From a bacterium (lineage in GTDB: Bacteria; UBA8248): DNA of 64,000 nt. Under the pieces are notes generated by a model. It ran no database searches. It worked only from the letters and a program-made list of their open reading frames with translations, and was not told the origin of the DNA. Shown here in pieces: positions 41,249 to 62,192 of this stretch; positions within the stretch are counted from its first letter, which is position 1, and each line of letters starts with the position of its first letter. The translations under genes and the position numbers were made by a program. The DNA lies in NCBI GenBank assembly GCA_963692865.2, contig OY843592.1:800001-864000 (forward strand), given 5' to 3'.

Positions 41249-41252
<4 letters not shown>

Positions 41253-46218: not shown

Positions 46219-47019
46219 ATGAGCTTGCGCAGGTGGAAGGACAGGATGGCGGCGCGCCTTTTGACGCGCTATCCGGGGCTGGTGAAACGATGGGCGGGCG
46301 GCAGGGACTTCTCCGCCGAGATGGCCGGCCTGCGCGCGGGGCCCGCGTTCACGCCCTGGACGCCGCTCGTGAAGCCCGTGCGCGAGTGCAAGGTCGCGCT
46401 GGTGACGACCGGCGGGGTGCATCTCAGGACGCAAACGCCTTTCGACATGGAAAACCCCGACGGCGACCCGACGTTCCGCGAGATTCCGGGCGGCGCCGCG
46501 CGCGGGGCGCTCACGATAACGCACGACTACTACGACCACCGCGGGGCGGATGCGGATTTGAACGTCGTCTTCCCGCACGAGCGGCTCGCCGAGATGGCGG
46601 CCGAGGGCGCGATAGGCGGGGTCTCGCCCGTCCACCTGAGCTTCATGGGCCACATCGATAAGGATCTCGTCGAGCGGCTCGTGGAGGAGACGGCCCCGGC
46701 CGCGGCGCGGCGGCTGCGCGAGGCGGGGGCGGAGGCCGCGCTGCTCGCGCCCGCGTGAGGGCTGTGCAACCGCTCGGTCGGGCTGATTCAGAACGCGGTG
46801 GAGCGGGAGGGCATATCCACCGCCTCGGTGAGCATCGTGAAGGAGATAACGGCTGCGCTTGCGCCGCCGCGGGCGGTGTTCGTGCCCTGGCCGCTGGGCC
46901 ATCCCTTCGGCAAAGCGGGAAATCTTGAACAGCAGCGCGCCGTGCTGTATGATATGATCGCGTTGCTTGAGACGGCCGAGGCGCCCGGCGCGCTGGTCGA
47001 GCGGAACCATCCCTGGTGA
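46219..47019 (+). CDS. PrdB/GrdB-like (glycine/betaine/proline reductase B family) selenoprotein, Sec at TGA 46756-46758
   Basis: VALVTTGGVH, GDPTFREIP, H.YYDH..AD.DLNVVFP. The in-frame TGA gives APA-U-GLC (UxxC), and the frame continues with family sequence (PPRAVFVPWPLGHPFG). Confidence 0.85.
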
Positions 47020-47138
47020 GTTTTCGGGGACCTTGAATAGGCGAATCGGGGGGAGCGAAGCCGCCCTTGAGCCTGCCCAAGGGGAGGAGTCAGCTTCGGG
47101 CCGAAGCGTCGGCGCCGGACCGGGCCTCGCGGAATCGT

Positions 47139-47322
47139 CCGGGACGGAGATGCCCGGACGAGCCTCACGGAGACTGAAGGCGGCGAGTCATCTTCAGCCG
47201 GAACCATCGGCGCCGGATTGTCCGGGACGGCGCTTGTGTTTCGGGGCGGGTTCATGCGGTTCCGGTCGCGGGGAAGGCGCCCGGGACGGAGACGCCCGGA
47301 CGAGCCTCATGGAGACCGAGGG
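47139..47322 (+). repeat. 42-bp imperfect direct repeat pair
   Basis: ccgggacggagaYgcccggacgagcctcaYggagac at 47139 and 47281. Confidence 0.75.
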
Positions 47323-47370
47323 AAGCGCCCGGGAATAATAAAAATTATCGATATCATGAAAATAGCAATT

Positions 47371-47419
47371 TCTGAAAATATGTATAAAATTGGATAAATT
47401 CACGGGGTTTTTCGATAAA
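47371..47419 (+). repeat. 49-bp AT-rich site, left copy of a long-range inverted repeat
   Basis: tctgaaaatatgtataaaattggataaatt-cac-ggggtttttcgataaa; 47/49 identical to the reverse complement of 60628-60676. Confidence 0.92.
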
Positions 47420-47484
47420 AAACGGGCAATTTATCTTATTGAATATGAAGGCGTTATCCCGATTTCAGCGATCAGGAGGCCGCC

Positions 47485-48069
47485 ATGGACACAGTTGCAA
47501 CCCCCATCACCCGCCTCGCGGAAGACCTTGCGGGCGTCTACGATCACGGCGCCCGCGGCCGGGAGTTCATCCGCGCCGCCGAACCCGCTCTCAAGCGCTT
47601 GCTGGGCGCGGGTTCCTTTCTCCCGCCCGAGGCGCTCGAACCCTCCGATGAAGGATATGCGCGTCATCTGTTGTACCGCGACCCCGGGGAGCGCTTCGTC
47701 GTGGCGGCCATGGTGTGGAAGCCCGGCCAGGGCACGCCGATTCACGATCATGACGGCGCCTGGGGAATGCTCGGCATGGTGGAGGGCGGTCTGGAAGTCG
47801 TTAATTATTTTGCGGATGCGGAGATTGCCGAGGGTGAAGTCACGCTCAGGAGCGATGCGCCCCACAACCCTTCGGCAGGCGCACGGGATTCGGTTTGCGG
47901 CTGCGCGGACATCCATACGGTGCGCAACCGGCGCGGCGACGTGGCGGTTTCCATTCACGTGTATCCGCGCGATTTGGAAGCGTGTCATTTCTTCGAACCC
48001 ATGGCCGGTGGAGAAAATCGCTTCCGCGCGCGCCGCGTCTCGATTTCCTACACGGGCGAGTCTTCCTGA
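47485..48069 (+). CDS. Cysteine dioxygenase-like cupin
   Basis: YARHLLY, W.PGQGTPIHDH, IH.V.N, SIHVY; aggagg RBS. Confidence 0.85.
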   Translation: MDTVATPITRLAEDLAGVYDHGARGREFIRAAEPALKRLLGAGSFLPPEALEPSDEGYARHLLYRDPGERFVVAAMVWKPGQGTPIHDHDGAWGMLGMVEGGLEVVNYFADAEIAEGEVTLRSDAPHNPSAGARDSVCGCADIHTVRNRRGDVAVSIHVYPRDLEACHFFEPMAGGENRFRARRVSISYTGESS

Positions 48070-48286
48070 GCGATTTCCGAACTACGACCAAAAAGCCATA
48101 GAATCAGGTGGAAAATCGAGAAACGGGGTTTCTTTGCTCGCGCTTTGCGAGGTCTCAAGTCCGGTGGTTTGCCGAGCGGGCGGGGTGCGGCTTATCGGCC
48201 AATCCTTCAGCAGGAGAATGAAACATCGTTTTCCCGGATTGACAAGATTCCTTGCATAAATCCACTTCTCATCCAAAGAGGTTTAT

Positions 48287-49150
48287 ATGCGCGGCAAAGG
48301 CGGCTGGTATGCTGGTTTCGAGGCTGTATCGAATTTTCAAATGTTCTTTCGGGACTGGAGGCCGGCCGGGAAAGGCGTGTTTTTGCCCGTTATCGCATTG
48401 CATGGCTCGCTGAGCCAGAGCGGCATGTGGAACGCTGTGGCGGAAGGCGCGGTTTCGATACGCATGGTATGTCCGGATCAAAGAGGATACGGGAGAACGG
48501 ATGACCCGGGTGGAAGTGATGCCGCTGCGGATTTCGCCAGGGACGTGATTGGCCTCGCCGACGCGCTTTTGCTGGACCGTTTCGTGGTGATGGGGCATTC
48601 CTTCGCCGGTTCAATCGCCCTGGCCGTCGCGGCGAAACGTCCGGAGCGCGTCGCCGCGACCGTGTTGATGGATCCGGCGGTTGGCGTTGACTCGGACGCC
48701 GATGCGAACCTGGAAGCGGCGCGGAATCGGCCGATGGAGTTCAAGAATCTCGCGCAGGCGCAGAAATTTCTCACGGAGAATGAAGAAGGACATTGGCCGC
48801 CTGCCCGGACGAGGCGGTTCTTAAGCGATGTTTTGGCGTGCGATGGATCAAATGGCGTTTGCAGGGTTCCTTATGAGAAAGATAGATTTCTGAGGCTGCG
48901 GGAATTTCAGGCCTCCGCCGAGAACGATTACGACCCCGTTTCTTGGGCCGAGAGGACAAAGTGCCCTTCTCTGGTGTTTCGTGGAGGAGAAAGCAAGCGA
49001 TTCAGCGAGAAGTCGGAAAAATTACTGGTGAATGCGCTATCCGCGAAATCAAGAGTGGTCGTGTGTGCGAAAGCCGGTCATTTCCCGAGCGTTTCGGAGC
49101 CAACCATCGTGCAGCGAGAACTCAAGGCGTTTTTGGCAGATCTGAAATGA
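48287..49150 (+). CDS. Alpha/beta hydrolase
   Basis: LHGS, DQRGYG, GHSFAG, AGHF. Confidence 0.88.
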   Translation: MRGKGGWYAGFEAVSNFQMFFRDWRPAGKGVFLPVIALHGSLSQSGMWNAVAEGAVSIRMVCPDQRGYGRTDDPGGSDAAADFARDVIGLADALLLDRFVVMGHSFAGSIALAVAAKRPERVAATVLMDPAVGVDSDADANLEAARNRPMEFKNLAQAQKFLTENEEGHWPPARTRRFLSDVLACDGSNGVCRVPYEKDRFLRLREFQASAENDYDPVSWAERTKCPSLVFRGGESKRFSEKSEKLLVNALSAKSRVVVCAKAGHFPSVSEPTIVQRELKAFLADLK

Positions 49151-51357
49151 ACAAACGAAACGGCGACAATCTGCATATTGAGACCGAGCTCAGCCGGGAT
49201 TTAGGGCTCGCATCAGCACTATCTATCGGCGTCGGCACGATGATTGCGGCGGGTATTTTTACGTTATCCGGCCTTGCCGTCAGGGACGTCGGGTCATCGG
49301 CCGTCATCGCTTTTCTCCTTGCCGCGCTTGTCGCCGGGTTTACTGCGCTCACCTATTGCGAATTCTCATCTCTGTATCCGGAGTCCGGAGAAGGATATCT
49401 CTATGCGAGAAGAACGTTTCCTCCGCCACTTGCCTACCTTGTAGGGTGGACGTTGGTGCTCGGCTACACTTCTTCATGCGCCTTCTACATCAGCAGCCTT
49501 TCTTCTTATTTCAATGAATTTATCTGGCATTCGCCTTATGAGCAAATATCGGGAACCGTGGGACTCATCTGTCTCGTATTGCTTAATATCAAGGGAACGA
49601 AAGAATCGGCTCGTTTTCAAGTTCTCATTACCGCCGGAAAGGTCATCCTTTTGTTTTGGTTTGTTTATGGTGGGTTGGGGAATTTGGATACAAAAGCCCT
49701 TGTCGAGAGAATGACCACGGACATTCCAAGAATTGGCGCGACGGCTGGTTTGGTCTTCATTACTTTTTTCGGATTTTCGGCAATTGCGGCATCGGCAGGA
49801 GAAGTCGTGAATCCCACGAAGACAATTCCTCGCGCGATATTTCTATCTATGGCAATTGTGACTATTTTATATACTTTGGTGGTCTTCGTAATCATTACCG
49901 CCAACCTCACGGAATATACGGAAGCGGCGATGGGTAACGCGGCGCGTCTTTTCCTGGGTCCTATCGGCGGCATGGTGATCGTCGTAGGCGCGCTTTTCTC
50001 AATGATTTCCGCATCTAACGCATCGATTTTGGCGGGTTCGCGGGTTGTTTTGTCTATGGCGCAACTGGGACACTTGCCCTCTGGAATCGCCGCGATCAAT
50101 TCCGAAACGCGCACACCCATTATTTCACTTATTTTAGTAGGAGGAGCCATAGTTCTTTTTGCACAAAGTTTTCATTTGGAGAAACTAGCGCACTTCGCGG
50201 ACACTATTCTTTTGTTAGCGCTGATTTTGGTGAATCTGGCGCTCATCTATCACCGGAGGAAATTTCCAAACCTGCCGAGACCTTTCCGTGTTCCCTTCGT
50301 GCCGTTGTTGCCGCTTATGGGAATTACCGCAAATATATATTTACTCTCACTGATATTTCGGCACCCTGAGCCGGTTGTCATGGCCGCTCTATGGCTGATC
50401 GTGGGGATGCTCGGTTTCTTGGCCTGGAAAGGCTCTCAGGCCGAGGAGGAATTTCTGCCGGGTGAACCATCTCGCGTAGCGCAGGTCAACACTGAGGGGC
50501 AGGAGAGTGATTTCCGCGTATTGGTTCCCATTGCAAACCCGACAAACGTCGCCCCCCTGATAGATATGGCTTCGGCGATTGCCAAAGAAAATGACGGTGA
50601 AATCATCGCCATGCGGGTTGTATCTTTGCCTGAGCAGGCACCGACGAGTCGCGAGACTTCATACGTTGAACGAGAAAGAAGAATTTTGGAGCAGGCCCAT
50701 GTTCGCGCCAAAACGAATGGTGTCAAAATTAGTTCTTTAGTAACAATTGGGCGTAATCCGGCGCGCGCCATCCTGGAGACGGCGAGAGAGCGCTATTGCG
50801 ATCTGATTGTGCTTGGCTGGAAAGGTTATACTTCTACCGCAAATCGAATTTTGGGTGAAGTAGTGGATGATGTCGTGAATCTTGCGCGAGCGGACATCAT
50901 GTTGGTGAAACTTGTAGGTGAGATGAAACTAAAAAATATTCTTTTACCGACAACCGGGGGAATTCATGCGCGTTTGGCGGAGCGATACACGGCCCCGATC
51001 GCAAGCGCTTACAATGCCAGACTTGTTGTATCGACCGTTGTTTCTCCAGAAGCTGGAACAACTCATAAACATTCTATCGAACAAGGACTCAGTGAGGCGG
51101 TAGGGAGAATCAACGATGAGAGCAGCGTTCATGTGGAGAGCCGAATCATCACGCACAAATCTGTTTCCGTGGGAATTATCCAAGCGTCAGAAGAATATGA
51201 CGCCATTGCCATGGGTGCAGCTGGCGAGAGTTTCTATAAACAGATTCTTTTTGGTTCTATTCCTGAAAACGTTGCGAAACACACGGACAAAACCGTAATC
51301 GTGTATAAACAATATTCTCCAGTGAAAGCGTTGGTGGGACGAGTGATGGAAAGCTGA
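49147..51357 (+). CDS. APC amino acid permease fused to two universal-stress (USP) domains
   Basis: GTMIAAGIF, G.GY.Y, FFGFSAIA, RPFRVP; C-terminal VLVPIANP and ILLPTTGG...FGSIPE. Confidence 0.88.
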   Translation: MNKRNGDNLHIETELSRDLGLASALSIGVGTMIAAGIFTLSGLAVRDVGSSAVIAFLLAALVAGFTALTYCEFSSLYPESGEGYLYARRTFPPPLAYLVGWTLVLGYTSSCAFYISSLSSYFNEFIWHSPYEQISGTVGLICLVLLNIKGTKESARFQVLITAGKVILLFWFVYGGLGNLDTKALVERMTTDIPRIGATAGLVFITFFGFSAIAASAGEVVNPTKTIPRAIFLSMAIVTILYTLVVFVIITANLTEYTEAAMGNAARLFLGPIGGMVIVVGALFSMISASNASILAGSRVVLSMAQLGHLPSGIAAINSETRTPIISLILVGGAIVLFAQSFHLEKLAHFADTILLLALILVNLALIYHRRKFPNLPRPFRVPFVPLLPLMGITANIYLLSLIFRHPEPVVMAALWLIVGMLGFLAWKGSQAEEEFLPGEPSRVAQVNTEGQESDFRVLVPIANPTNVAPLIDMASAIAKENDGEIIAMRVVSLPEQAPTSRETSYVERERRILEQAHVRAKTNGVKISSLVTIGRNPARAILETARERYCDLIVLGWKGYTSTANRILGEVVDDVVNLARADIMLVKLVGEMKLKNILLPTTGGIHARLAERYTAPIASAYNARLVVSTVVSPEAGTTHKHSIEQGLSEAVGRINDESSVHVESRIITHKSVSVGIIQASEEYDAIAMGAAGESFYKQILFGSIPENVAKHTDKTVIVYKQYSPVKALVGRVMES

Positions 51358-51442
51358 CCAAATCACACCGGTGTATTGACATGCAAATGCATGAGCATTT
51401 CGAGTAAGAGCAATTAAAATTTTTGTCGTTGAGGTGGTTCAT

Positions 51443-52162
51443 TTGTCTAAAATGGTATCGAGTTCCATGGAAGCCGTTTCGGATATTCCCAGAGGCGCAT
51501 CGATTCTTATCGGCGGGTTTGGCATATGTGGAATGGCGCATAATTTGTGTAAAGCACTGAGCAAACGAAAAGGTGTCGGCGATTTCCATTTGATATCGAA
51601 TGCGGGTGGAATGGACGGTTGGGGCGTGGGCCTGATGTTTGAAAACCGTCAGATCCGCTCCATTATCGCCAGCCGTGTGGGTCCGGCGTGTAAGGCCTAT
51701 GAAGAGCAAGCCTTGGAAGGGAAAATCGAAGTTGAACTCTCGCCTCAAGGAACATTCACTGAACGAATTCGGGCAGGTGGAGCCGGCATCGGTGGTTTCT
51801 TTACACCAACGGGAGCAGGGACCGTCGTAGCAGAAGGAAAAGAAACGAGAATCATTGAAGGACGAGAACACATTTTTGAAGAACCTATTCGGGCGGATTA
51901 TGCTTTCATCAAGGCTTGGAGGGGAGACGAGAGAGGGAATCTGATATACAGAATGAGCGCGCGGAATTTTAATCCCATCATGGCCACTGCCGCCGAGGTG
52001 ACTATCGCTGAAGTAGAAGAAATTGTTTCCGTAGGTGAAATTGCGCCAGAAAATATACATACGCCAGGGATTTTTGTGCAACGGTTGGTTTTGGGCGAAG
52101 ACTTGGAGAAACCTATTGAAATTATGACGAATCGACCCCGAAGTAATCCTAGGGGGAGTTGA
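51443..52162 (+). CDS. scoA: 3-oxoacid CoA-transferase subunit A
   Basis: [32 protein letters not shown]. Confidence 0.85.
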
Positions 52163-52163
52163 A

Positions 52164-52826
52164 TTGCCTTTAAGTAGACACGATATTGCCAGGCGTGCAG
52201 CCATGGAAGTGCCCCGGGGGGGTTATGTAAATCTCGGGCTCGGCATACCCACGCTGGTGAGCAATTACATACCGGAAGAATACGGTGTCACCATCCACTC
52301 GGAAAACGGTGTCTTGGGTGTGGGCCCATTTCCATACGAAGGAGATGAAGACCCCGATTTGCTGAATGCCAGCAAAGAAACCGTGACGCTTATGCCTGGA
52401 GGTTCGTATTTTGACAGCGCTACGTCATTTTCCATGGTCAGGGGCGGGCATATAGACGTCACCATACTCGGTGCAATGGAAGTCGCTGGTAATGGCGACC
52501 TGGCGAATTGGGCGATACCAGGCAAGATGATATCTGGCATGGGCGGTGCTATGGATCTCGTCGTGGGCGCCCGAAAAGTTATCCTCACCATGGAACATGT
52601 TTCAAGGAGAGGGGCGCCTAAGATCGTAGAAGCGTGCACACTGCCCTTGACCGGCAAAGGCGTGGTGGATGTCATCATTACCGATCTAGCGGTTATTACG
52701 GTAGAGACTGGCGGACTCTTGCTGCGTGAACTCGCTCCTGGCGTGAATGAGAGTGAGGTGCGGGAAAAAACCGCTACGCCTTTACGTGCGGCTTCGAACT
52801 TGTGTGAAATGTTTGCGAATGTTTGA
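52164..52826 (+). CDS. scoB: 3-oxoacid CoA-transferase subunit B
   Basis: [14 protein letters not shown] (catalytic Glu), [14 protein letters not shown]. Confidence 0.88.
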
Positions 52827-52835
52827 GTTTCCATA

Positions 52836-53753
52836 ATGGTTGATCTTGAACAATACACTCGAGAATACCGGGGATTGATGCGCCAACACGCCTATCGACT
52901 CACAGGCAACGTTTTGGATGCAGATGATATCGTGCAAGATACAATGTTGCGAGCGATTGAAATGGGCTCGGCTCTCGAGAATATCGATGATCACCATGAG
53001 TGGCTCTATTCCGCATGTACAGAAGAGGCGCTTTCTCGATTACGAGAGAGAAAACCTTTGCAGTTGAATGAATTCGACCTTCCTGATTTGGTCCAGACTG
53101 CAGACTCAAGCACGAACGGAGAGATCCAATCCATAGAGGCTAGCTCTGCATGGCCAAGCGTTGCGATCGAGTTTTTATTCCCCCTCCAATACATGACGCC
53201 CGAACAGCGCGTTGTTGTCGTGCTCAGGGATGGGGTAGAGGATGGTGACCGGATTGCGGCATCCGCAATGGAAATCAAAATTCAAGAGGTTTTCAAAATT
53301 GCCGACAGTGCGGATAAAAAACGAGCTCAAATTCAAAAATACTGGGAGAGAAATGTTTTTTTCGCCTCCACCAAGAATCAGACCCAGGCAGCGCGAGTGT
53401 TCGAGCGATTCGTGGAGGCGCTTGGTTTTCGAGACAAAGTGTTGTTGCAAGGACTAATGGCGCCGGATGTAGAGCTTATCGTCCGAGATGAGCGGAGAAC
53501 GGGTGACGATTTTGTGGCTGTGGCTTGCACGGAGTTGCTCGGCCAGATGGGGGAAAAGCTGACATTCAGCCCTGTTTGGTTTAACGGTTGTCGGGGCGTT
53601 CTGATCTGGACGTGGCGAACAAGAAGAAACGAATGGCTAAAATGCGGCGCCGTCACGGTTTTAAGTGATAATTCGAACATAAAAGCAATGAAATGGTATT
53701 TGGATGGACATCTTTTGCGCGCTATTCATACCGAAGCGCCCCAAGCTTCTTGA
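52836..53753 (+). CDS. Divergent ECF sigma factor with SnoaL-like C-terminus (SigG/SigJ-like)
   Basis: HAYRLTG..DADDIVQDT.LRA (region 2), LQYMTPEQR.VVVLRD, F..A....D...L..L.APDV. Confidence 0.65.
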   Translation: MVDLEQYTREYRGLMRQHAYRLTGNVLDADDIVQDTMLRAIEMGSALENIDDHHEWLYSACTEEALSRLRERKPLQLNEFDLPDLVQTADSSTNGEIQSIEASSAWPSVAIEFLFPLQYMTPEQRVVVVLRDGVEDGDRIAASAMEIKIQEVFKIADSADKKRAQIQKYWERNVFFASTKNQTQAARVFERFVEALGFRDKVLLQGLMAPDVELIVRDERRTGDDFVAVACTELLGQMGEKLTFSPVWFNGCRGVLIWTWRTRRNEWLKCGAVTVLSDNSNIKAMKWYLDGHLLRAIHTEAPQAS

Positions 53754-53905
53754 ATCTTGAAACTTCGCGTCGGGACAACAGAAGTCTTCAAACCAAGTGG
53801 TTGAGCAACCAAAAGCACTCATCTCTGTTGCGTAACCAAGATTTATATTGCGCCGTCCGACCTCTCTGGATTTTTCAACCATCCCTATCCAAACGGTAGG
53901 CATTA

Positions 53906-56161
53906 TTATTTGTTTTCAGTAATTTTTCCGAGCGCCTTGCATATGTGGTGCGGACCCACCGGGATCTCGAAAAATCGAATTCCCACCGCATCGGCGATGG
54001 CATTCATGATGGCCGCGGGAGCAGCGAGTATGGGTGGTTCACCGACGCCCCTCATGCCATAAGGCGTATCATCCGCTTTGTTCTCAATCATTACAGTTTT
54101 CAGTTCAGGAACATCCATGCTGGTGGGTAAAAGGTATTCATGGAGAGTTCCGCCATGGATATTGCCAGTCCGGTCACGAGGTTGTTCTTCCATTAGCACC
54201 AAACCGATTCCCTGAAGCATCCCGCCTTCCATTTGGCCGATCACCGAGATTGGATTCATCGCAAAACCCACATCCTGCGAACAAGTCAGCCTCAAAACTT
54301 TTACCTCGCCCGAATCCATGTTTACGGCCACTTCCGCTATCTGCGCCGTGTAGATGGGGCAAGGCTCCGGCGCCTGTGTTTCCCCTTGGCCCATGATATA
54401 ACCTGAAATCCCAGGGGCCGCTTTCGCTATTTCGTTTAGTGAAATGGTTCGTTCGGGTGTGGATTGCGAGAAAACGCGCCCTCCTTCAATCGTCAGATCA
54501 GCTGGATCGGCTTCAAGTTTCTCAGCGGCGATAACTCGAATTTTTTCTTTCAAGTTGTTTATGGCAACGATAACGGCGGCACCCATCGAGCGGGTTACCA
54601 TACTGCCTGCCGCGCGAACCGATTCAGGCGCGGTGTCGGTATCGCCGCTGTCGAAAGACACTCGCTCGATGTCGATATCCATTTCTTCCGCAGCAATTTG
54701 GCGCATTGAGGTTGTTGCTCCCGTGAGGTTCACGGAGCCACTGAGGAGTTGGACGCTTCCGTCCGCGTTCAGACGTGCTGTACATGCAGAAGCTCCGCCG
54801 TTTCCGCGCCAAAAGCTAACGGCAAGGCCTCGACCGAATTTCCAGCCGGAGCCTTCTAAATTCACGTTCGTCTTGATGGTGTCGCCCCAGTTTCCTTCTT
54901 TGGCGATGCTTTCCAAAACTTTGATCATACCGTCGTCTTTTTGCATCCCGAATAATCCGACGTCGCCTTTGCGGATGGCGTTTTTTCGCCTGATTTCAAG
55001 AGGGTCGATACCTAACTCGCGCGCAATGATGTCGAGATGCACTTCCGTTGCGAAGAAACACTGAGGGCCACATGGTCCTCTTACCGAGCCGCATATGGGC
55101 CCGTTGGTGTAGACGCTCACCATTTTCACGGAAGAATGAGGGATATTGTAGCAGCTAGTGAACATCGGAATGCGAGAACTCGCCTGAGTCGGAGCGCCGG
55201 GGCCATATGCGCCATGGTCGACAATGATGTCCGCTTCGCGCGCTATTATAGTGCCATCAGAGGTTACCCCTGTTTTTAATTTTATTCGCAATCCTTGTCT
55301 GGGGCTGATGCCATTATGGTCGTCTTCACGCGTCATCTCGTGGCGCACGGCTCGCCCGCTTTTGAGAGCAAGCAATGCAATGATGTGTTCGATAAACGAA
55401 TGAATTTTCCCTCCGAATCCACCACCGATTTCTGTGGGGATGACTCTGACTTGCGAGAGCGGAACGCCTAGCGCCTCGGCGACTTGTTCTCGGATAGCGA
55501 AAGGCGCTTGCGTTGTTGTCGAAATGGTGATTTTTCCATCGGCACCTGGTTCCGCCATGCAAGCATGGGGTTCGATATATCCAGAGTGCGCGTATGGAGT
55601 ATGAAATGTGTGTTCAAATATATGATCCGCCTTTTTCATTGCGGCATCCACATCGCCCATGGATTTTTCATAGCGACCAATCACATTTCCTTCTCCATTG
55701 GGACCTAAGCCTATTTTTTCCCAGTCTTCGTGAACAAGTGGGCCATTGCCATCGCGCGCCGCTAAAAGGTCCACCACGGGCTCAAGTACTTTGTAACGTA
55801 CTTCTATGGAGTCTAGCGCCGCTTGGGCGGCATCCATTGATTCCGCCGCAACCGCTGCAACAGGGTCTCCGATATATCGGACGTAACCATCACGGGCTAG
55901 CCAACAGATATCTTTGACCTCAAGCCCGAAATGGTGTGGGGGACAATCATTACCGATTAACACGGTCCGCACGCCGGGTATTTTTCTGGCTTTCTGCGTG
56001 TTTATGGAAATTATATTGGCATGTGGGTGTGGGCTTCTGAGTACCAAACTAACCAGGGGTTGGACGGTGGTAACGTCTGCCGCGAATTTGGCCGTGCCTA
56101 CAGCTTTATCTGGCAGATCATATCTGGGGATACTTTTGCCGGCTACTTTCAGTTCACTCAT
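53906..56161 (-). CDS. Xanthine dehydrogenase family molybdopterin-binding subunit
   Basis: LRSPHPHA, IGGGFGGK, GQMEGG..QGIG, RGVGEPP. Confidence 0.9.
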   Translation of the reverse strand: MSELKVAGKSIPRYDLPDKAVGTAKFAADVTTVQPLVSLVLRSPHPHANIISINTQKARKIPGVRTVLIGNDCPPHHFGLEVKDICWLARDGYVRYIGDPVAAVAAESMDAAQAALDSIEVRYKVLEPVVDLLAARDGNGPLVHEDWEKIGLGPNGEGNVIGRYEKSMGDVDAAMKKADHIFEHTFHTPYAHSGYIEPHACMAEPGADGKITISTTTQAPFAIREQVAEALGVPLSQVRVIPTEIGGGFGGKIHSFIEHIIALLALKSGRAVRHEMTREDDHNGISPRQGLRIKLKTGVTSDGTIIAREADIIVDHGAYGPGAPTQASSRIPMFTSCYNIPHSSVKMVSVYTNGPICGSVRGPCGPQCFFATEVHLDIIARELGIDPLEIRRKNAIRKGDVGLFGMQKDDGMIKVLESIAKEGNWGDTIKTNVNLEGSGWKFGRGLAVSFWRGNGGASACTARLNADGSVQLLSGSVNLTGATTSMRQIAAEEMDIDIERVSFDSGDTDTAPESVRAAGSMVTRSMGAAVIVAINNLKEKIRVIAAEKLEADPADLTIEGGRVFSQSTPERTISLNEIAKAAPGISGYIMGQGETQAPEPCPIYTAQIAEVAVNMDSGEVKVLRLTCSQDVGFAMNPISVIGQMEGGMLQGIGLVLMEEQPRDRTGNIHGGTLHEYLLPTSMDVPELKTVMIENKADDTPYGMRGVGEPPILAAPAAIMNAIADAVGIRFFEIPVGPHHICKALGKITENK

Positions 56162-56373
56162 GGAGCCCTCAAAATGTATAGTGTATATGAGCGCTTCGTA
56201 TTTCGTGTTGACAATGTTGAGTCTTGTGGGATTTCAACCCCTAAAGAGATGCGATCATATCCCGATTGCGAATGGGTGCCGAAAACCCTAGTTTATCGTA
56301 TATATCGGAATAGCGACAGGTTGTGCACGCCAAGGACATATGACCAGAGGAAATGCCTTTAAGGAGAACACTT

Positions 56374-57252
56374 ATGCCTAATCCGATCCCACTGGGTGTT
56401 CTTGGGTATCCGGCAGGCCATATTTTGTCACCTGTATTACATAATAAAGCGGCTGAAGTTTTAGGCGTGAATTATCACTATCTTTCCTATGAAGTACACC
56501 CGGATTATTTAGAAGAAGCTGTGTGGGGAGCACGGGCGATGGGATTTCGCGGACTCACAATTACGATTCCGCACAAGGTGGCTGCCGCCAAGTTGATGGA
56601 TGAACTCAGCGAGGACGCCCGGTTGATGGGCGCTGTGAACACGATAGTTTTTGAAGAAGACGGACGCCTGATTGGTCACAACACGGATGGTGTCGGTTGG
56701 CTCCGATTTTTGGAGGAAACAACAGGAGAACATCCCAAGGGAAAAAAATGTCTTGTTTTGGGTGCGGGAGGGGCCGCGAGAGCCATTGCGGTCAAAATAG
56801 CTCAATGTGGAGCGACTCATCTCGAAATCAGAAATCGGACGCCTGAGAAAGCTTTGGAGTTAGCGCGCTTTGTGGAGAAAAGCATTCCTTCTTCTATAGC
56901 GACCGGCGGTGGCTTGAACGAGCTTTATTCGGCGGCTGATGGTTGTGGGATAATCGTGAATACAACAAGCCTCGGGATGTGGGGAGACACGGAACGTATG
57001 GCTACAAACCCTATTCCCGAAGACGCTATCCCGAAAGGTTGTATCTGTTCGGATGCAGTTTATATTCCACCTGATACGGAATTTCTAAAAGCAGCCGGAC
57101 GGTCTGGGGCTCAAATTGTTCGCGGAACGGGCTGGTTGGTGTATCAAGCAGCGGCTGCTTGGAAAATATGGACGGGAGTGGATATGCCTACGGATATAGT
57201 GATGGAAGTTCTACACGAAGCTTTGGAATCACGCCTAAGTGGCGAAGATTAG
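56374..57252 (+). CDS. aroE: Shikimate dehydrogenase
   Basis: HILSP.LHN, TIPHK, GAVNT, NTDG.G, GAGGAAR, NRT; aggag RBS. Confidence 0.85.
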   Translation: MPNPIPLGVLGYPAGHILSPVLHNKAAEVLGVNYHYLSYEVHPDYLEEAVWGARAMGFRGLTITIPHKVAAAKLMDELSEDARLMGAVNTIVFEEDGRLIGHNTDGVGWLRFLEETTGEHPKGKKCLVLGAGGAARAIAVKIAQCGATHLEIRNRTPEKALELARFVEKSIPSSIATGGGLNELYSAADGCGIIVNTTSLGMWGDTERMATNPIPEDAIPKGCICSDAVYIPPDTEFLKAAGRSGAQIVRGTGWLVYQAAAAWKIWTGVDMPTDIVMEVLHEALESRLSGED

Positions 57253-57521
57253 CCGTCGAATGTTTGTCGCTTTTTTACACGTTCTTCACATGGTGTCGCC
57301 GCATCGTTGCCCAGCCACAAGTCCCATGCGCCGTGATGGCCGATATCCACGCCTTCTCTTTGAGCTTTTTGTTGTAGAGCGATTTGCAATTCATCCATGA
57401 ACTCGCTATCCATAAGCTCAAGATGTTCTCCAATATGGCGATGCAGTACTCTATATATTAGTTTCATATCCTCTACTGATGTCTCGAATGAATACGACTC
57501 GCCTTGTTCTGAGAAAGCCAT
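57249..57521 (-). CDS. Small hypothetical protein
   Basis: 90-aa protein-like ORF whose stop overlaps the aroE stop. Confidence 0.65.
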   Translation of the reverse strand: MAFSEQGESYSFETSVEDMKLIYRVLHRHIGEHLELMDSEFMDELQIALQQKAQREGVDIGHHGAWDLWLGNDAATPCEERVKKRQTFDG

Positions 57522-57692
57522 TTTTTTCCTGTGAAATAAAGGATTTTGAAATGGGGCGGATAAACCTATCCCATTTTAACTGATTATTGTTGATAATAAA
57601 ATCTCGCTACAGTGATTCTATGCGGGGAGGGCCGGGAGCCCGGTATTGCGCATGGGGCCGGGCCCCCGGCTGGGGGGTGGTGCTCGTGAAGA

Positions 57693-58730
57693 TCAGTTCA
57701 GACACACTTGCTTGAAATCTTTTAAGTGGTCTAGTACGTGGCCAGTTCCACGGACGACTGTGGTCAGTGGGTCTTTTACTCTATAAATTGGAAGGCCGGT
57801 CTCATCATGGAGCCTCGTTCCGAGTCCTTTTAAGAGTGAACCCCCGCCCGCTAACACGATTCCTCGTCGGTAAATATCCGAAGCGATCTCGGGACTCGTT
57901 TTGGCCAGAGCTTTTTTGATGGATTCAACCATGGCTTTTATGGGACCGTCGAGAGCTTCTCGCACCGATTCATCGGTCAGCTTGATGGTGCGGGGCAAGC
58001 CAGTGGAAACGTCTGCGCCTGAAACTTCCATTTGAAGCGGCTCGGAAAGCGGGGCTGCTGATCCAATCTCCATTTTGACGCGTTCGGCCTCGAATGAGCC
58101 GATCGATAGACCGTGGTGTCTTTTGATATAGCGTTGGATGCATTCGTCCATGGCGTCTCCCGCCATGCGCAGAGATTCCGAATATGCAATGACGTACTGG
58201 GAGATGACGGCCATTTCGGTTGTTCCTCCCCCGATATCGACTATCATGGAGCCTGCGATTTCATGAATCGGAAGTTTGCTTCCAATGGCCGCCGCCATGG
58301 GTTCTTCAATTAGATGGACCTTGCCGGCCCCGCATTGGGTAGCTGAATCGATCACGGCTTTCATTTCGACACTGGTAATTCCCGAGGGAACGCAGACCAT
58401 CATTGTAGGTCGGCTGAAAGACCTTTTGGGCACGATTGCTCGAACGAAATGGCGAATCATGGCTTTGGTAACGTCGAAATCGGCGATTACCCCGTCTTTC
58501 ATGGGGCGAATCGTCCGAATCGAGCCTGAAGTCCGACCGTACATTTCCTTGGCTTTTTTCCCCACCGCGAGAACGCCTCCCCCGTTTTTTGAGTTCAAGG
58601 CGACAACAGAGGGTTCATCAAGAACGATTCCGGCATTTTTTGTGTAAACCAGAGTGTTCGCCGTCCCGAGGTCCATAGCGATATTGGGCCCCATCCAGGA
58701 TCTGAGGCGCTTCAAAAAATGAAATTTCAT
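57693..58730 (-). CDS. mreB: Rod shape-determining protein MreB (likely paralog; no mreCD)
   Basis: MDLGTANT, RPMKDGVIADF, IEEPMAAAIG, VDIGGGTTE, GGGSLLKG. Confidence 0.9.
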   Translation of the reverse strand: MKFHFLKRLRSWMGPNIAMDLGTANTLVYTKNAGIVLDEPSVVALNSKNGGGVLAVGKKAKEMYGRTSGSIRTIRPMKDGVIADFDVTKAMIRHFVRAIVPKRSFSRPTMMVCVPSGITSVEMKAVIDSATQCGAGKVHLIEEPMAAAIGSKLPIHEIAGSMIVDIGGGTTEMAVISQYVIAYSESLRMAGDAMDECIQRYIKRHHGLSIGSFEAERVKMEIGSAAPLSEPLQMEVSGADVSTGLPRTIKLTDESVREALDGPIKAMVESIKKALAKTSPEIASDIYRRGIVLAGGGSLLKGLGTRLHDETGLPIYRVKDPLTTVVRGTGHVLDHLKDFKQVCLN

Positions 58731-60181
58731 GATTCATCTCCCCCCACAAAGCAAAGTTGATTTATCGCGCTCCCCTTTTGGGCGAACCCTAGTGCTTCAA
58801 GAGATAACCTGATAAGGCTTTTTGGGCTTCGAGCAGTTTCGGGGAAACATGCAGCGCCTATTGAAATTGTGATTTCGAACTCTTTTCCGCCGAGATGGAA
58901 GGGAGTGTGATGAACGACGTTGATTATTCGTTGCGCAACGGCTTCCGCATATTCCTGGGAGGAATCTCGCAATAACAAGAGAAAACGCGGCCCCTCATGC
59001 CGCACCAAAATATCATCTCCGGCAGCGAATTGTTTAAGCGAATTCGAGAGCTGAAGAATGACTTCTTCTTCGGACGTATTCTTGAATTCCGATGAAGCGT
59101 CGGGGGCGATGCTCAGCAAGGCGAGTTGGCGTCCTTTTGCGTCCGCCTCGCAGATGATTTCATGAAGGCGAGAATATAGATATTGTGCATTTTGCTCGCC
59201 GGTAAGAGGATCGATTTCTAAACGCGCTTGCCATCGCAACTCGTTTTTCCGGTTTGCAACGGCATCCGCCACCAGAGCCGCGATGATTTCTCCGCGCTGG
59301 ATGGAAGAAGCGTCAAATTGGGCCCGGCGTTTGCTTGTAAATCCCAGACAACCGAGAATTTCACCTCTTGAAGCGAGGGGAATGCATGCTGCGGAACGCG
59401 CTTCGAACCGAGGCTCGTCCTGATGGAAGAGAGGCCGGGTTCCTTTTTTCCCTTTCAGGTCCGTGAGCCTTAAGCTTTCTTTTTTGCTTAATACGTATCC
59501 CGCCAGACTCGAGCGTTCGCTGATGACGACTTCGCCCAGGAAGAGCTCCCCGAACCCCGAGGTTCGAACGAGGCGGGGGACGCCTGCTTCCTCGTCGATG
59601 AGAACGAGGAAGCAGGCGTCGAAGGGAAGCAATTCGCGCGGCACCTGACATACCGCATTCAACAATTGATCTTCGTTTTCGCTTGCGCGAAGCGAAGTCA
59701 GGTATCTGCCGAAGGCGGGAACGCTCATGGAGCGCCGCTCCGTTTGAACGCTCCTCAAGGCGCCGTCTGCAAGATAGGCGAATTGCTGGGCGAACCCCGC
59801 GAGAATTTTTTGGTCTCTGGACGTGAAACACCAGCTTTTCTTGCTGTCGATGGCGAGCGCCCCTTTATTGATCGATGAGGGCAGGGGAGTCGCCATGAAG
59901 GACTTGATATCCTCGTTTCTGCTGTAATAGCCGAGAACCAGGGTGTCTTTGTCGAACTGGTTGACGCTTAAGGGTTCGTTGTTCTCCAGAACCCAGCCCA
60001 TGAAGCCCTGTCCCACGTCGACCGAGGCGTCCGTGAGTATGTAGGGGCTGAGGCTGTGGTATGTGGTGAGCTGGTAGGTCTTGCGGCGTTTGTTTTCAAG
60101 GAACAGGCAGGCGGAGTAGGCTTCCGTCACGTTGCTGACGAGCGTGATGAGGGAGAAAAGGTCTCTTTCCAGATTCGTCAT
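58727..60181 (-). CDS. GAF-GAF-degenerate GGDEF protein
   Basis: G.GFMGWV...IKSFMA.PL (GAF1), SLAGYV..SAACIPL (GAF2), DPLTG and TISIG.A.FP; RHEGPRF in place of RxGGDEF. Confidence 0.8.
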   Translation of the reverse strand: MTNLERDLFSLITLVSNVTEAYSACLFLENKRRKTYQLTTYHSLSPYILTDASVDVGQGFMGWVLENNEPLSVNQFDKDTLVLGYYSRNEDIKSFMATPLPSSINKGALAIDSKKSWCFTSRDQKILAGFAQQFAYLADGALRSVQTERRSMSVPAFGRYLTSLRASENEDQLLNAVCQVPRELLPFDACFLVLIDEEAGVPRLVRTSGFGELFLGEVVISERSSLAGYVLSKKESLRLTDLKGKKGTRPLFHQDEPRFEARSAACIPLASRGEILGCLGFTSKRRAQFDASSIQRGEIIAALVADAVANRKNELRWQARLEIDPLTGEQNAQYLYSRLHEIICEADAKGRQLALLSIAPDASSEFKNTSEEEVILQLSNSLKQFAAGDDILVRHEGPRFLLLLRDSSQEYAEAVAQRIINVVHHTPFHLGGKEFEITISIGAACFPETARSPKSLIRLSLEALGFAQKGSAINQLCFVGGDES

Positions 60182-60432
60182 TGCCGGCACCCAATGGGAC
60201 GGATTGGGACGTTGCGGAATATACCAAGGCCGGGAAATATATTTCAAGTAGTTTTTTCATTAGCATTCGTATCTGATTGTATTTATTGATTTTATGAGAA
60301 TTAAAAAAATGAGCCCCCTGAACGGAATTAAAGTGGTTTCTGCAATAATTTTTATAAACTATTGATATTTAACGGATTACTATTATGAAATTGACTCGCG
60401 AATTGGTTTCCGCCTCGTTGCGGCGAGGAAAG

Positions 60433-60480
60433 CCCACCTGTTGTGTGGGAAATCTTTTTGTGGAACTACATGTTGTGGTG
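60433..60480. promoter_or_regulatory. Tandem NrdR-box-like sites
   Basis: ccacctgttgtg (60434) and ctacatgttgtg (60466), 32 bp apart. Confidence 0.4.
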
Positions 60481-60627
60481 TCCGCGGACGCCGGGCCGGG
60501 CGCCCGCACGGGATTTCACCCCCGCAATTCCCCGCATTTGCCGTTGCGCGCCCGCCTGGGGCGTCGTGGTATCCTCGCCGTGTTCCCTTCGCCGGAGGGG
60601 GAGTTGCGCCTCCGGGCGGCGCGGAAA

Positions 60628-60676
60628 TTTATCGAAAAACCCCCTTAATTTATCCAATTTTATACATATTTTCAGA
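60628..60676 (-). repeat. 49-bp AT-rich site, right copy of the long-range inverted repeat
   Basis: Reverse complement of 47371-47419 with 2 mismatches. Confidence 0.92.
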
Positions 60677-60710
60677 TATTCTTTCGGGGGCGGCGAGAGG
60701 GTTTCCCGCC

Positions 60711-61064
60711 CTAGCGCTCATACGCCTTGGTGGCGCTCACGGGGATCATGCAGACGAACTCCATGGTCTCGTCCGAATCGTTGTGGAAGGTGTGGTTCTC
60801 GCCCGGCGCCACGAATACGGCCGCGCCCGGCGCGATGGCCTCGGTCTCGCCCTCGACTATCACCCGCCCCTCGCCCTTGAGCATGAACACCTGATGCTCC
60901 CAGGGATGGGCGTGGTCGGGCGTCTGCCCGCCCGCCTCAATCTCGATGACCCGCATCGCCATTCCGGTCTCGCCGTCGCGCTCGCTGAGCAGCCAGCGGA
61001 TGCCCGCGCCCCTGGCCGCCTTCTCCGCCTTCAGTTCCGCGTCCTTGTAGTTCATCACCTTCAT
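60711..61064 (-). CDS. Cupin domain protein
   Basis: GGQTPDHAHPWEH, PGENHTF; aggagg RBS. Confidence 0.88.
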   Translation of the reverse strand: MKVMNYKDAELKAEKAARGAGIRWLLSERDGETGMAMRVIEIEAGGQTPDHAHPWEHQVFMLKGEGRVIVEGETEAIAPGAAVFVAPGENHTFHNDSDETMEFVCMIPVSATKAYER

Positions 61065-61237
61065 GGCGTCGCGCCTCCTATGGTTTGATTCGGCCTTTAC
61101 GTCCCCGGCCGGGAAGCGCGAATCTTACCACATCCCGGCTCAAGCGTGTCAAAACCGCCGCCGGGCGAGAAGAGAGAAACCACTCTCCTTTGAGGAGCAA
61201 TCGCGACCGATGAAGGAGTGATTGACGCGACCGCAGA

Positions 61238-61418
61238 GGGGCTGTTGAAAAAGCCGGAGAGAGGCAATTTGTTTGTAGGGGCCGCATGATCTGTCAGACA
61301 TATATGTCTGACCTACAATGCCATCGCGTTTTGCGTAGCAGGACAGGCACGGAGACCTGTCCCTACGGGATCATCACGTCGCCGACCGAGGGGATACATG
61401 GCCTTTTTCAACAACCCC
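61238..61418. mobile_element. MITE-like TIR element
   Basis: ggggctgttgaaaaag...ctttttcaacaacccc; inverted relative of 45744-45952. Confidence 0.65.
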
Positions 61419-61538
61419 CTCAAGGGGGGAGTGGTGCTCTTCTCTCTTGTCGGTCGGCAATGCCGTTCTGGGGCGAAGCCCACAGTCGCATCGGTAGGGT
61501 GTAAATCCGTTTCGATTTTTGCGTAGGGGTGTCGGGTT

Positions 61539-61943
61539 TCACCGTAGGGGCGGACCCATGTGTCCGCCCTGGTTTTGGTGTTGTTGATTTTCTGCATATC
61601 GTTGAGGTTCATCCGATTCACGATCTTCGCCTTTCGGGCGGACACATGGGTCTGTGGGACAGCCCCGAGGAGGGGCTGTCACTACGATGGCAACGACGCC
61701 GTGAATGTGATTCGGCATGAGGACATACGCACCCAATTCGACATGCGGAAATTTGCTTTCCGTCTTGCGCCACCAACGGTCGCCCATTTGCCCCGCCCGG
61801 TTCAGAACCATCCGGCCCGCGTCGATTTCACCGAACAAGCACTGCCTGCCCTGCGCGCAAACCGTCACGAAGTAGTGCCTCGCCCGCGAATAATCGTACC
61901 CCTTCAACCGGTTCGGTTTCCGCCGTCTTTCGCTCAAACCCAT
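61539..61943 (-). pseudogene. Truncated REP-associated tyrosine transposase (RAYT, Y1-HUH)
   Basis: RLKGYDYS...YFVTVC, MPNHIHG (HUH). The ORF runs into REP sequence and stops before any catalytic-Tyr half; flanked by gtaggggcggaccc REPs. Confidence 0.8.
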
Positions 61944-62192
61944 AATCCCGACATATTCTCCCCGTGGTCATGGTCTCGAACCATTGATGGCCTCCTGTAG
62001 GGGCGGACCCGCGTGTCCGCCCTGGTTTTTGTGCGGTTGACGTTCTCCCCGTCGTTGATCTCGCCCCTTGCGGTTCGCTCGATTTGCGATTTTCGCGTTT
62101 CGGGCGGACACATGGGTCCGCCCCTACGGGCGAATGCGGTTTTGTTCGTCATTCCGGCGGGCGGCGAACTCCGGGCGAGAAGGTTTCCCCCC

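Follow-up and report, generated by a model that had tools for sequence, protein, structure and literature searches.

Results

The 13.3-kb block and its arms

The window, that is the whole stretch of DNA analysed, comprises 64,000 nucleotides (positions 800,001 to 864,000 of a 3.94-Mb contig), and the coordinates of genes and arms at this locus are counted from its first base. It contains a 49-base sequence in two inverted copies, the left arm at 47371-47419 (+) and the right arm at 60628-60676 (-), and comparison of the two confirmed that 47 of the 49 bases are identical (30/30, 1/3 and 16/16). No target-site duplication is visible on reading both flanks (...AAATAGC stands before one arm, CTTTCGGG... 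after the other), in agreement with the preliminary description of this DNA.

The first gene after the left arm encodes a CDO_I-type cupin (47485-48069, +), with a third-position GC (GC3) still at 0.73; it is followed by an alpha/beta hydrolase gene (48287-49150, +; GC3 0.63, declining along the gene) and by an amino-acid permease fused to two Usp domains (48943-51357, +), the open reading frame of which was listed from a TTG, while the true start is probably near 49200. According to Pfam, two CoA-transferase subunit genes of the scoA/scoB type (51434-52826, +), a 305-aa protein whose only domain is sigma-70 region 2 (52836-53753, +) and the large subunit of a molybdenum hydroxylase of the xanthine dehydrogenase family (53906-56161, -) come next. 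A shikimate dehydrogenase gene (aroE type; 56353-57252, +) precedes a MreB paralogue (57693-58730, -), which is the second of the genome's two full-length MreB matches, and a GAF-GGDEF protein gene (58727-60247, -) situated 375 bp downstream of the right arm. As noted earlier, all these genes are directed toward approximately 53.8 kb with the exception of aroE, the sole outward-pointing gene of the block. It had also been remarked that the cargo lacks integrases and transposases, and indeed none of the 10 open reading frames analysed by Pfam carries a recombinase domain; the tRNA search at 40000-64000 gave no hit.

The reported compositional shift was reproduced. GC falls between the arms from 0.61-0.68 per kb to 0.48-0.53 and returns to 0.66, and GC3, which is 0.70-0.92 in the flanking genes, is down to 0.44-0.55 within the block. 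The change is gradual within the boundary genes, as GC3 declines from 0.78 to 0.67 along the cupin gene and from 0.68 to 0.58 along the hydrolase gene, and amounts to 0.72 in the 5' half of the GAF-GGDEF gene versus 0.48 in its 3' half.

On the outer (5') side of the left arm there is a GC-rich spacer (47011-47365) with an internal 45-bp direct repeat, which could not be aligned in the related genome G010. Outside the right arm a Cupin_2 gene (60711-61064, -) keeps its linkage to the block in the relatives. Beyond it, a REP-rich spacer (61100-62200) holds a RAYT-like gene fragment (61539-61967, -), which has no Pfam match and stands among GC-rich REPs, a family different from the arms.

The arms belong to a dispersed polar repeat family

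The statement that the arms have no other copy in the window proved to be correct, since a 30-mer (up to 3 mismatches) matches twice in the window and in none of 100 shuffled versions. Genome-wide the arms are not unique: a profile gave 66 matches at E < 1e-5, 63 of them on the 3.94-Mb contig, with the two arms matched at 47366-47425 and 60622-60681. The arms are members, two among about 60, of a one-directional AT-rich repeat that lies at the borders of conserved gene blocks and occurs in a group of sponge-associated bacteria. The core pattern was present in 49-72 copies in 15 of the 22 other genomes of the genus, and in 7 copies and 1 copy in two more; these genomes are kin, so that the counts are not independent replicates. 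It had 0 copies in 28 genomes of 14 other genera, and the reversed control pattern gave 0 in all genomes scanned. Furthermore, an exact 27-mer of the repeat was found in at least 105 loci of related metagenome-assembled genomes.

Each copy is an array of 56-70 bp consisting of three or four GATAAATT boxes phased at 10-11 bp, and the exact TCGATAAATT is present within the right arm. Information in the consensus is high over positions 1-56 and absent before position 1, so that the 5' edge of the repeat is sharp; conservation extends over the entire 56-bp array as one unit, the GC-containing spacer CACGGGG included. None of four single-stranded DNA folds of the repeat formed a hairpin (z-scores from -0.81 to +0.49), no match to the repeat was obtained in Rfam 15 or in plasmid and phage collections, and no IHF consensus was recognised in it.

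Chromosomal position and the fork trap model

Two inverted polar sites with genes converging between them offer a local picture that fits a replication fork trap analogous to Tus/Ter or RTP/Ter; this was the leading model of the preliminary description, which had named the lack of a skew inversion here as its refutation. The cumulative GC skew of the contig is lowest near 700 kb and highest near 2.52 Mb, which places the origin at the former and the terminus at the latter position. The window is thus origin-proximal, and the skew climbs steadily through it, at 800-864 kb, with no sign change. The contig copies are dispersed with no replichore bias (12+/18- vs 15+/18-, by tally), and the Tus and RTP domains (PF05472, PF02334) had no match in the genome, which was rated 97% complete; both controls matched, although an unrelated terminator protein would escape such a domain search. 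The model is refuted by its own skew test, and with the skew profile and the copy distribution together excluding it, its probability is next to nil.

Origin of the low GC content

The polar sites had further been credited with delimiting a domain of its own mutational regime. The generic part of this claim, polar sites at the edge of a domain, was borne out: copies are strand-polar, stand at block edges and face each other when close. The causal part failed. The block is GC-poor in all nine relatives' loci fetched (GC 0.46-0.52), equally so in G010, which lacks the repeat, and in G004, which retains 7 copies of a decayed family; in addition, 36 of 50 low-GC blocks have no copy at the edge, and only 5 of 50 are bracketed on both sides. 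Therefore the repeat is not the cause of the low GC.

An old horizontally acquired island in slow amelioration, whose ends survive as the arms, would be expected to show low GC and GC3 that change gradually at its edges, as seen here. However, at 72-86% identity the block is collinear with its left flank in 12 of 12 relatives of the genus, its place and orientation unchanged, the GC of the relatives is just as low, no tRNA, integrase or direct repeat lies at the block, and analogous blocks contain nusA, the only one in the genome, with infB, truB and pnp, as well as lepA, lepB and ksgA. An island origin is accordingly very improbable, and the 13.3-kb block is ordinary vertically inherited chromosome near the replication origin, GC-poor from before the repeat. 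It was also observed that GC-poor blocks of native housekeeping operons diverge faster than the GC-rich remainder.

Placement and orientation of the copies

Judged by gene calls from a home-made codon model, 63 of the 66 copies overlap no called gene, and the repeat is intergenic irrespective of gene direction. The gene on its 3' side, which is the inside, is convergent at 41 of the 66 copies, ending at a median of 135 bp from the repeat, and co-oriented at 25; on the 5' side a co-oriented gene ends in 32 of 66.

These figures bear on the proposal that each copy is a promoter or operator of one regulator, the arms being the co-regulated promoters of two inward operons. The proposal suits the 13.3-kb locus itself, where each arm is followed downstream by a string of genes that face inward; a start codon preceded by AGGAGG stands 60 bp after the left arm, the conservation of this arm relative to orthologues extends to that start codon at 47485, and the stretch between arm and start is conserved in 8 species. 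In approximately 13 of the 66 copies the first 20 nt are replaced by a different sequence, which we take to be Fur-box-like, and a partial copy stands approximately 230 bp upstream of three integrase operons. It fits no wider, however: neither convergent 3'-side genes nor co-oriented genes ending on the 5' side suit promoters, the core of either arm has no sigma-70 consensus, and a regulon would predict neither the facing of close copies nor the variable 5' side. We consider this explanation distinctly unlikely for the family.

The two sides of the repeat differ. Of 54 loci, 51 have a conserved inside flank and 28 a conserved outside flank. REP-type 16-mers account for 6.9% of the sequence in the kb outside, compared with 0.4% in the kb inside and 1.4% in random windows. 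The 3' side is thus conserved lower-GC DNA that includes housekeeping genes, and the 5' side is variable and REP-rich. GC is lower 3' of the repeat for paired and solo copies alike, with the drop starting 1-3 kb inside the copy and not at it; about 10 copies face the wrong way relative to low-GC blocks.

When neighbouring copies less than 25 kb apart were scored, they were facing (+/-) in 13 of 14 close pairs in the genome analysed here (G000) and, among three further closed genomes, in 12 of 15 in G008, 10 of 10 in G011 and, by hand tally, 11 of 12 in G026; the relatives' loci with two copies were facing in 4 of 4 cases. Since close copies face each other, gene modules are bracketed by them. 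Homologous recombination alone does not account for the fact that close pairs are +/- and almost never -/+.

Rearrangements at the repeat

Some modules differ between species by inversion or a new position, and the breaks fall at the copies. When flanks were centred on the motif, 20 loci were collinear and 18 broken; at control points 3.2 kb away the figures were 45 and 8. In G008, bracket 1369180-1383097 lies inverted between its two flanks when compared with G000 and G011, and bracket 2203777-2209017 is inverted with respect to its left flank. The genome of L038 shows a 45-kb +/- segment inverted at one junction; two of these three inversions have support at one junction only. At bracket 429167-439294 both flanks differ in G008. 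The partner copy is the closest relative in the genome for 4 of 13 pairs, and homology with the orthologue stops within 20 bp of the 5' edge of the repeat in 21 of 50 alignments. At the 13.3-kb locus no inversion was seen among the 12 relatives, and the public runs covering this bracket are contigs that stop in the repeat, so that no within-population flipping could be shown. Right-hand synteny with several relatives breaks 0.5-1.5 kb outside the right arm, in the REP-rich spacer and not at the arm; hence REP arrays rather than the repeat may be the real breakpoints.

An invertible segment acted on in trans, another earlier suggestion, thus gains indirect support from other brackets and none from the 13.3-kb locus. 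In its general form the copies would serve a trans-acting tyrosine recombinase as its sites or as arm-type binding clusters, and facing pairs would be the ends of invertible or mobilisable cassettes in a chromosome-wide shufflon-like system. Besides the inverted or relocated brackets and the abrupt loss of homology, this is consistent with the sharp outer edge at position 1 and the subterminal direct boxes. Tandem P4-type integrases with arm-binding domains are multi-copy, the genome has 11 tyrosine-recombinase matches elsewhere, integrase pairs occur in 16 of 16 genomes with at least 49 copies and are absent from 5 of 7 with few or none, and in L037 an integrase pair begins 720 bp from a repeat copy. 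However, this co-occurrence tracks phylogeny and may reflect a single event, G004 retains an open integrase pair despite its decayed repeat family, and in G000, G008 and G011 the integrase pairs mostly do not adjoin copies. Neither a resolvase nor an rve transposase was found in the genome, the arms have no target duplication, brackets hold the only nusA, and the 13.3-kb block is fixed in all relatives. Recombinase sites are therefore an unlikely candidate.

Discussion

The repeat is most likely a protein-binding boundary repeat which is also a recombination substrate. We hold it slightly better than an even chance that the two arms are neighbouring members of a lineage-specific polar AT-rich repeat, serving as putative protein platform and recombination substrate and bracketing modules, among them the inherited 13.3-kb block. 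The phased box array would be the platform for a sequence-specific DNA-binding protein, and the copies might act as substrates of homologous or integrase-mediated recombination, which could shuffle modules and homogenise paired copies; the 13.3-kb block is one such module, fixed in place and orientation in the genus.

A bolder proposal, which we rate as quite improbable, is that the repeat is an orientation-dependent boundary, where a box-bound protein blocks a tracking process from one side only. The process stopped might be loop extrusion, the extension of recombination tracts or supercoil diffusion, and facing pairs would insulate small chromosomal modules. If true, bacteria would have a counterpart to the convergent-site rule known from eukaryotic loop anchors, and the recombination-cold, GC-poor, faster-diverging interiors would be explained. 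In a variant of the proposal, an integrase would invert modules throughout the chromosome, with the pairs as its sites.

Dispersed extragenic repeats are common. In our searches of the open-access literature, which were not aimed at orientation rules, no strand-polar repeat was found that parts conserved from variable DNA with close copies facing each other. Should the facing rule be functional, it would give a sequence handle on the division of the bacterial chromosome into modules, and natural experiments are on offer, since a single genus comprises species that carry the repeat, lack it or have it in decayed form. Faster-diverging GC-poor housekeeping blocks also bear on the debate on biased gene conversion (PMC4450053). 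The 13.3-kb locus itself is an ordinary inherited gene block near the origin.

Compared with known systems, the repeat shares with Tus/Ter and RTP/Ter polar DNA sites for protein binding in opposed orientation, but here they are origin-proximal, number about 60, show no replichore bias and come with no Tus or RTP found. Site-specific inversion systems (Hin/Gin/Cin, the Rci shufflon, Fim-type invertons) likewise have a segment set between inverted polar sites, and the differing orientation of some of our brackets between species is a second likeness; in contrast, the present segments measure 2.4-25 kb, contain essential genes and have no recombinase encoded in or beside them, and the 13.3-kb bracket never differs among the 12 relatives. 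Mobile insertion cassettes and MITE-bounded composites have terminal inverted repeats with a sharp outer edge and a cargo without transposase, as here, whereas here no target duplication and no cognate transposase were found, the 13.3-kb cargo is conserved and syntenic across the genus, and single-copy core genes are part of the cargo.

The BIME-1 or RIB (RIP) elements of Escherichia coli are REP mosaics with an IHF site in the linker. Both they and the present repeat are dispersed, extragenic, strain-variable, present in tens of copies and often placed at the 3' ends of transcription units, and both pair GC-rich REP units with an AT-rich, here putative, protein-binding site. However, the AT-rich unit is here a separate polar array of 56-70 bp beside REPs and not between two, with no palindrome and with a facing rule over 2-25 kb. 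Many dispersed extragenic copies are shared with REP, BIME and REPIN elements in general, but their palindromic hairpin unit is absent. According to PMC3333891, REP/BIME bind IHF, Pol I and gyrase, and are topological insulators and insertion-sequence targets.

Finally, a nucleoid-associated protein might use the copies as high-affinity sites, for nucleation or as a barrier, with facing pairs anchoring or delimiting AT-rich domains by H-NS-like spreading or bridging or by an orientation-dependent loop barrier; this explanation carries a small probability. The repeat box equals the H-NS high-affinity motif, the 10-bp tCGATAAATT given by Lang et al. 2007 (PMC2094087). There are 37 exact occurrences of this 10-mer in place of 1.6 expected, 31 of the 37 in or beside family copies; it is present in the right arm, and the left arm has TCGATAAAAA. 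Phased A-tracts, transcription-independent placement, the one-sided lower GC and the facing rule point the same way. Against it, H-NS (PF00816) and Lsr2 (PF11774) were not found in the genome rated 97% complete, most low-GC blocks have no sites, and the GC drop does not start at the copy. The likeness to H-NS nucleation sites consists in the shared 10-bp box, clustered phased sites and AT-richer neighbouring DNA, but here the whole array, spacer included, is conserved, and the flanked genes are native housekeeping genes and not silenced foreign DNA.

Inverted arms and the GC-poor block

The inverted repeat that had been seen by inspection proved to be real: its two arms, at 47371-47419 on the plus strand and 60628-60676 on the minus strand, are identical at 47 of 49 positions, and the 30-mer they share is matched at two places in the window but in none of 100 shuffled sequences. 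The GC content of the 13.3-kb block between the arms drops per kb from 0.61-0.68 to 0.48-0.53 and then returns up to 0.66, and third-position GC (GC3) is 0.44-0.55 within the block versus 0.70-0.92 in the flanking genes. The slope of GC3 is gradual inside the cupin, hydrolase and GAF-GGDEF genes, which confirms the gradual fall and recovery reported in the preliminary description. Its statement on the contents was also correct: the 10 ORFs encode ordinary functions in metabolism and cell shape and include no recombinase, and no target duplication was found in the sequence flanking the arms, nor any tRNA near the block. Two full-length MreB copies are present in the genome, the one in the window being the second. 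Scans for sigma-70 promoters and terminators at both arms revealed no site inside either arm. Among public sequencing runs, none of RNA was listed as containing the sequence. Four runs consist of contigs ending in the repeat; a single joint spans the block, and one of its sides measures 30 nt.

Three more GC-poor patches (0.45-0.51) were recognized in the window, at 13000-15000, 28000-30000 and 41000-43500, and their edges carry no repeat copy. The last of these adjoins a gene with HsdM_N and N6_Mtase domains (43960-45546, minus strand), the methylase subunit of a type I restriction-modification system.

A dispersed AT-rich repeat family

On its 3.94-Mb contig the window spans 800001-864000; the assembly comprises 4.15 Mb with 61% GC. 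The genome-wide search identified the arms as members of a larger family: with a profile derived from BLAST seeds, 66 copies were found in the genome at E below 1e-5, and 63 of these do not overlap called genes. The ungapped consensus is gAATTcCTGAAAAaTTGgATAAAaTTGGATAAATTCACGggGTTTTTCGATAAATT; conservation begins abruptly at position 1 and fades past about position 56-70, and the unit consists of successive GATAAATT-type boxes that recur every 10-11 bp. Folded as a single strand, neither strand of either arm did better than shuffled sequence, no Rfam family matched the whole window at gathering thresholds, and BLAST of the arm sequence against plasmid and phage collections gave no match. None of the papers listed by a literature search on sponge Nitrospinota genomes pointed to such a repeat.

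An exact 27-mer of the repeat is present at at least 105 loci in MAGs labelled Nitrospinota, several of them with sponge-type bin names. Counts across genomes were made with a 26-nt degenerate pattern allowing up to 2 mismatches, with the reversed pattern as control. Among 22 other genomes of the genus, 15 hold 49-72 copies each, one holds 7, one holds a single copy and five hold none; none of 28 genomes examined from 14 further genera of the class has the pattern, and the control was zero in every genome. The family is decayed or missing in G004, G010, G009, G001, G007, G033 and G034, and G006 is among the repeat-rich genomes.

In a subfamily the first 20 or so nucleotides are replaced by GATAATGAAAATAATGAT, as in the copies on the main contig (G000:C1) at 3647821, 1546788, 1894079, 3613219, 1782360, 3113127, 646010 and 1156848, among others. 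This head resembles the enterobacterial Fur box consensus. About 13 copies have such a Fur-box-like head; a Fur-type regulator is a candidate for binding the repeat, and the GATAATGAAAATAATGAT-headed copies may be iron-regulated variants.

A 7.5-kb segment with both of its arms is present twice, at 1539265-1546847 of the main contig and at 3803-11385 of the 28.7-kb contig C8, with 98.6-99% identity; this reflects a recent duplication or else a variant that the assembly did not resolve.

Facing rule and polarity of the copies

On the main contig 14 adjacent pairs of copies lie less than 25 kb apart, against 20.4 +/- 3.1 expected, which is no excess over chance; their orientation, however, is strongly restricted. 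Thirteen of these close pairs are of the facing type (+/-) and the remaining one is -/-, with -/+ and +/+ both missing, while the four orientation classes comprise 18, 18, 18 and 8 of all 62 adjacent pairs. Taking a quarter for each class, the binomial probability of 13 facing pairs in 14 is about 2e-7. The arms at 47371-47419 and 60628-60676 form one of these facing brackets. Facing pairs also account for 12 of 15 close pairs in G008, 10 of 10 in G011, 11 of 12 in G026 (manual tally) and 4 of 4 relatives' loci with two copies, but since the genomes are kin and many brackets are orthologous, these counts are replicates and not independent tests.

The repeat is polar at the level of DNA and not at that of transcription. 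According to gene calls made with a two-class codon model, the gene on the inside (3' side of the repeat) is convergent at 41 of 66 copies and co-oriented at 25, at a median distance of 135-159 bp, and the outside gene, at a median of 556 bp, points in either direction (34 versus 32). High-copy 16-mers of the REP type occupy 6.9% of the outside kb, 0.4% of the inside kb and 1.4% of random windows, their content being higher outside at 44 of 66 copies and higher inside at 8. Furthermore, when copy-bearing loci of relatives were compared with the genome of the window, an orthologue was found for the inside flank in 51 of 54 cases versus 28 of 54 for the outside flank, and in 21 of 50 inside-anchored alignments the homology ends no more than 20 bp from the 5' edge of the repeat. 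Around paired copies the mean GC is lower on the inner side over a stretch of roughly +2 to +15 kb (0.54-0.58 versus 0.60-0.63 outside); solo copies have the same deficit in a weaker form.

Rearrangements at the copies

The copies mark rearrangements. When the two flanks of a copy in relatives' loci were mapped to the genome of the window, 20 flank pairs were collinear and 18 apart, versus 45 and 8 at control points 3.2 kb off the copy. Comparison of bracket ends by tile maps in G008 and G011 revealed that in G008 the 13.9-kb bracket at 1369180-1383097 lies inverted between its two flanks, while G011 has it collinear. Also in G008, the 5.1-kb bracket at 2203777-2209017 is turned round with respect to the left flank, and the 10-kb bracket at 429167-439294 has two different flanks; in several further brackets one flank is changed. 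In one relative (locus L038) the only junction seen shows a 45-kb +/- segment (646010-691369) in inverted order; another relative (L039) is collinear. Where the genome of the window has no copy, alignments of the 'empty site' exhibit replaced sequence and not a clean deletion.

In 4 of 13 pairs no copy in the genome is closer to an arm than its partner, the inverted repeat being extended to 0.4 and 1.2 kb in two of the four. Within G000, the genome of the window, and within G006 the left and right arms differ less from each other than orthologous arms do across species. These similarities indicate conversion between partners.

Conservation of the block and origin of low GC

With a 19.9-kb query the block was recovered, at 72-86% identity, from each of 12 genomes of the genus, and the synteny comparison proposed earlier showed it kept beside the left flanking gene, on the same strand, in all 12. 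The block in G009 is without the Mo-hydroxylase and aroE part, and that in G010 is split across two contigs. On the right, synteny with G002, G004, G006, G008 and G010 stops 0.5-1.5 kb past the arm, in REP-rich DNA (61100-62200). This spacer contains a stop-to-stop ORF (61539-61967, minus strand) that has a RAYT-like N-terminal half (YFVTVC...LMPNHIHG) and continues into a REP unit; the ORF is probably a truncated REP-associated transposase because it had no Pfam match. The block is an ordinary, vertically inherited gene module.

Its GC content is 0.46-0.52 in all nine relatives' loci examined. In G010 the degenerate pattern found no family copy, and the arm has only a diverged relative in the orthologous spacer, one in which the CACGGGGTTTTTCGATAAA part is missing. 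In G004 the left arm (L111) is replaced by four GGTGAAAAAT-type boxes with an 11-bp period; this variant occurs six times in that genome (G004:C2:1458925-1458942 and five others) and in none of G006, G010, G009 and G001. The G004 arm has kept its architecture with altered boxes. Since the block is equally GC-poor without a family copy and with a replaced arm, its low GC predates the repeat and does not depend on it, contrary to the earlier proposal that the repeat delimits a mutational regime.

Across the cargos of the 14 brackets no common recombinase, or any common gene, was found. A Pfam scan of two other GC-poor brackets identified ksgA, lepB, lepA, htrA, dGTPase, gdh and tal, as well as rimP-side nusA, infB, truB, pnp and pyruvate dehydrogenase E1. 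Since NusA is single-copy in the genome, the genes of these two brackets are native and belong to the core, and were not imported. GC-poor blocks (0.48-0.55 in a genome of 61% GC) such as 2646300-2660700 and 2912700-2922900 of the main contig contain native single-copy housekeeping operons (nusA-infB-truB-pnp, lepA-lepB, ksgA), and such blocks diverge between species faster than GC-rich DNA.

The contig has 50 blocks of at least 3 kb with GC below 0.555, together 11.6% of its length. Inward-facing copies stand at both edges of 5, at one edge of 9 and at neither edge of 36, and about 10 copies lie at a block edge in the wrong orientation; the association is real but loose. In 558 tiles of 500 bp interspecies identity rises from 83.0% at GC 0.40-0.50 up to 88.8% at GC 0.65-0.75 (r = 0.35). 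Inside tiles are retained in 90-95% of cases, yet are more diverged (about 85% identity), whereas outside tiles are retained in 27-56% and are less diverged where kept (87-88%). Taken with the GC3 gradient, which runs 1-3 kb inward from the arms, this divergence would, we infer, be compatible with interiors that are poor in recombination in a genome subject to GC-biased gene conversion, a process on which PMC4450053 bears.

Candidate binding proteins and comparison with known systems

The 11 tyrosine-recombinase matches in the genome include P4-type integrases in which an arm-binding domain (Arm-DNA-bind_3) accompanies Phage_integrase, arranged as four tandem pairs at 204740-207135, 3258800-3261200, 3428313-3430727 and 3806860-3809250 of the main contig (L128-L130), and a single integrase gene lies at 1532626-1534053 (L131). 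These pairs are candidates for binding or cutting the repeat, as the family is present in 16 of 16 genomes with at least 49 copies versus 2 of 7 with few or none, and the first 28 or so nucleotides of the repeat stand upstream of three pairs. However, this co-occurrence follows phylogeny, in G004 an open pair persists despite the decay of the repeat, and most pairs have no copy next to them. They are 73-89% alike, with 3-27 matches in every repeat-rich genome of the genus, and have no obvious terminal repeats; no convincing inverted repeats were found around two of them. They look like a compact two-recombinase mobile element. Resolvase and rve domains were not found by Pfam in the genome.

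No mechanism tested explains the facing rule fully, and the repeat family together with this rule is the interesting object.

The leading model of the preliminary description, a replication fork trap, was rejected; the observation behind it was true. The cumulative GC skew of the contig has its minimum at about 700 kb and its maximum at about 2.52 Mb, which places the window 100-160 kb from the putative origin, and the skew climbs across the whole window with no sign change. Copies are spread round the chromosome without bias between replichores (12+/18- and 15+/18-, manual tally), and Pfam detected neither Tus nor RTP domains in the genome. In contrast to Tus/Ter and RTP/Ter, the arms are origin-proximal, copies occur chromosome-wide, and neither protein was detected.

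An H-NS-like protein is another candidate binder. The box of the repeat equals tCGATAAATT, the H-NS high-affinity motif of PMC2094087, and this exact 10-mer occurs 37 times versus 1.6 expected, 31 of these in or beside the family. The box motif is shared with H-NS high-affinity sites, whereas here Pfam found no H-NS or Lsr2 domain in the genome and the flanked genes are housekeeping genes.
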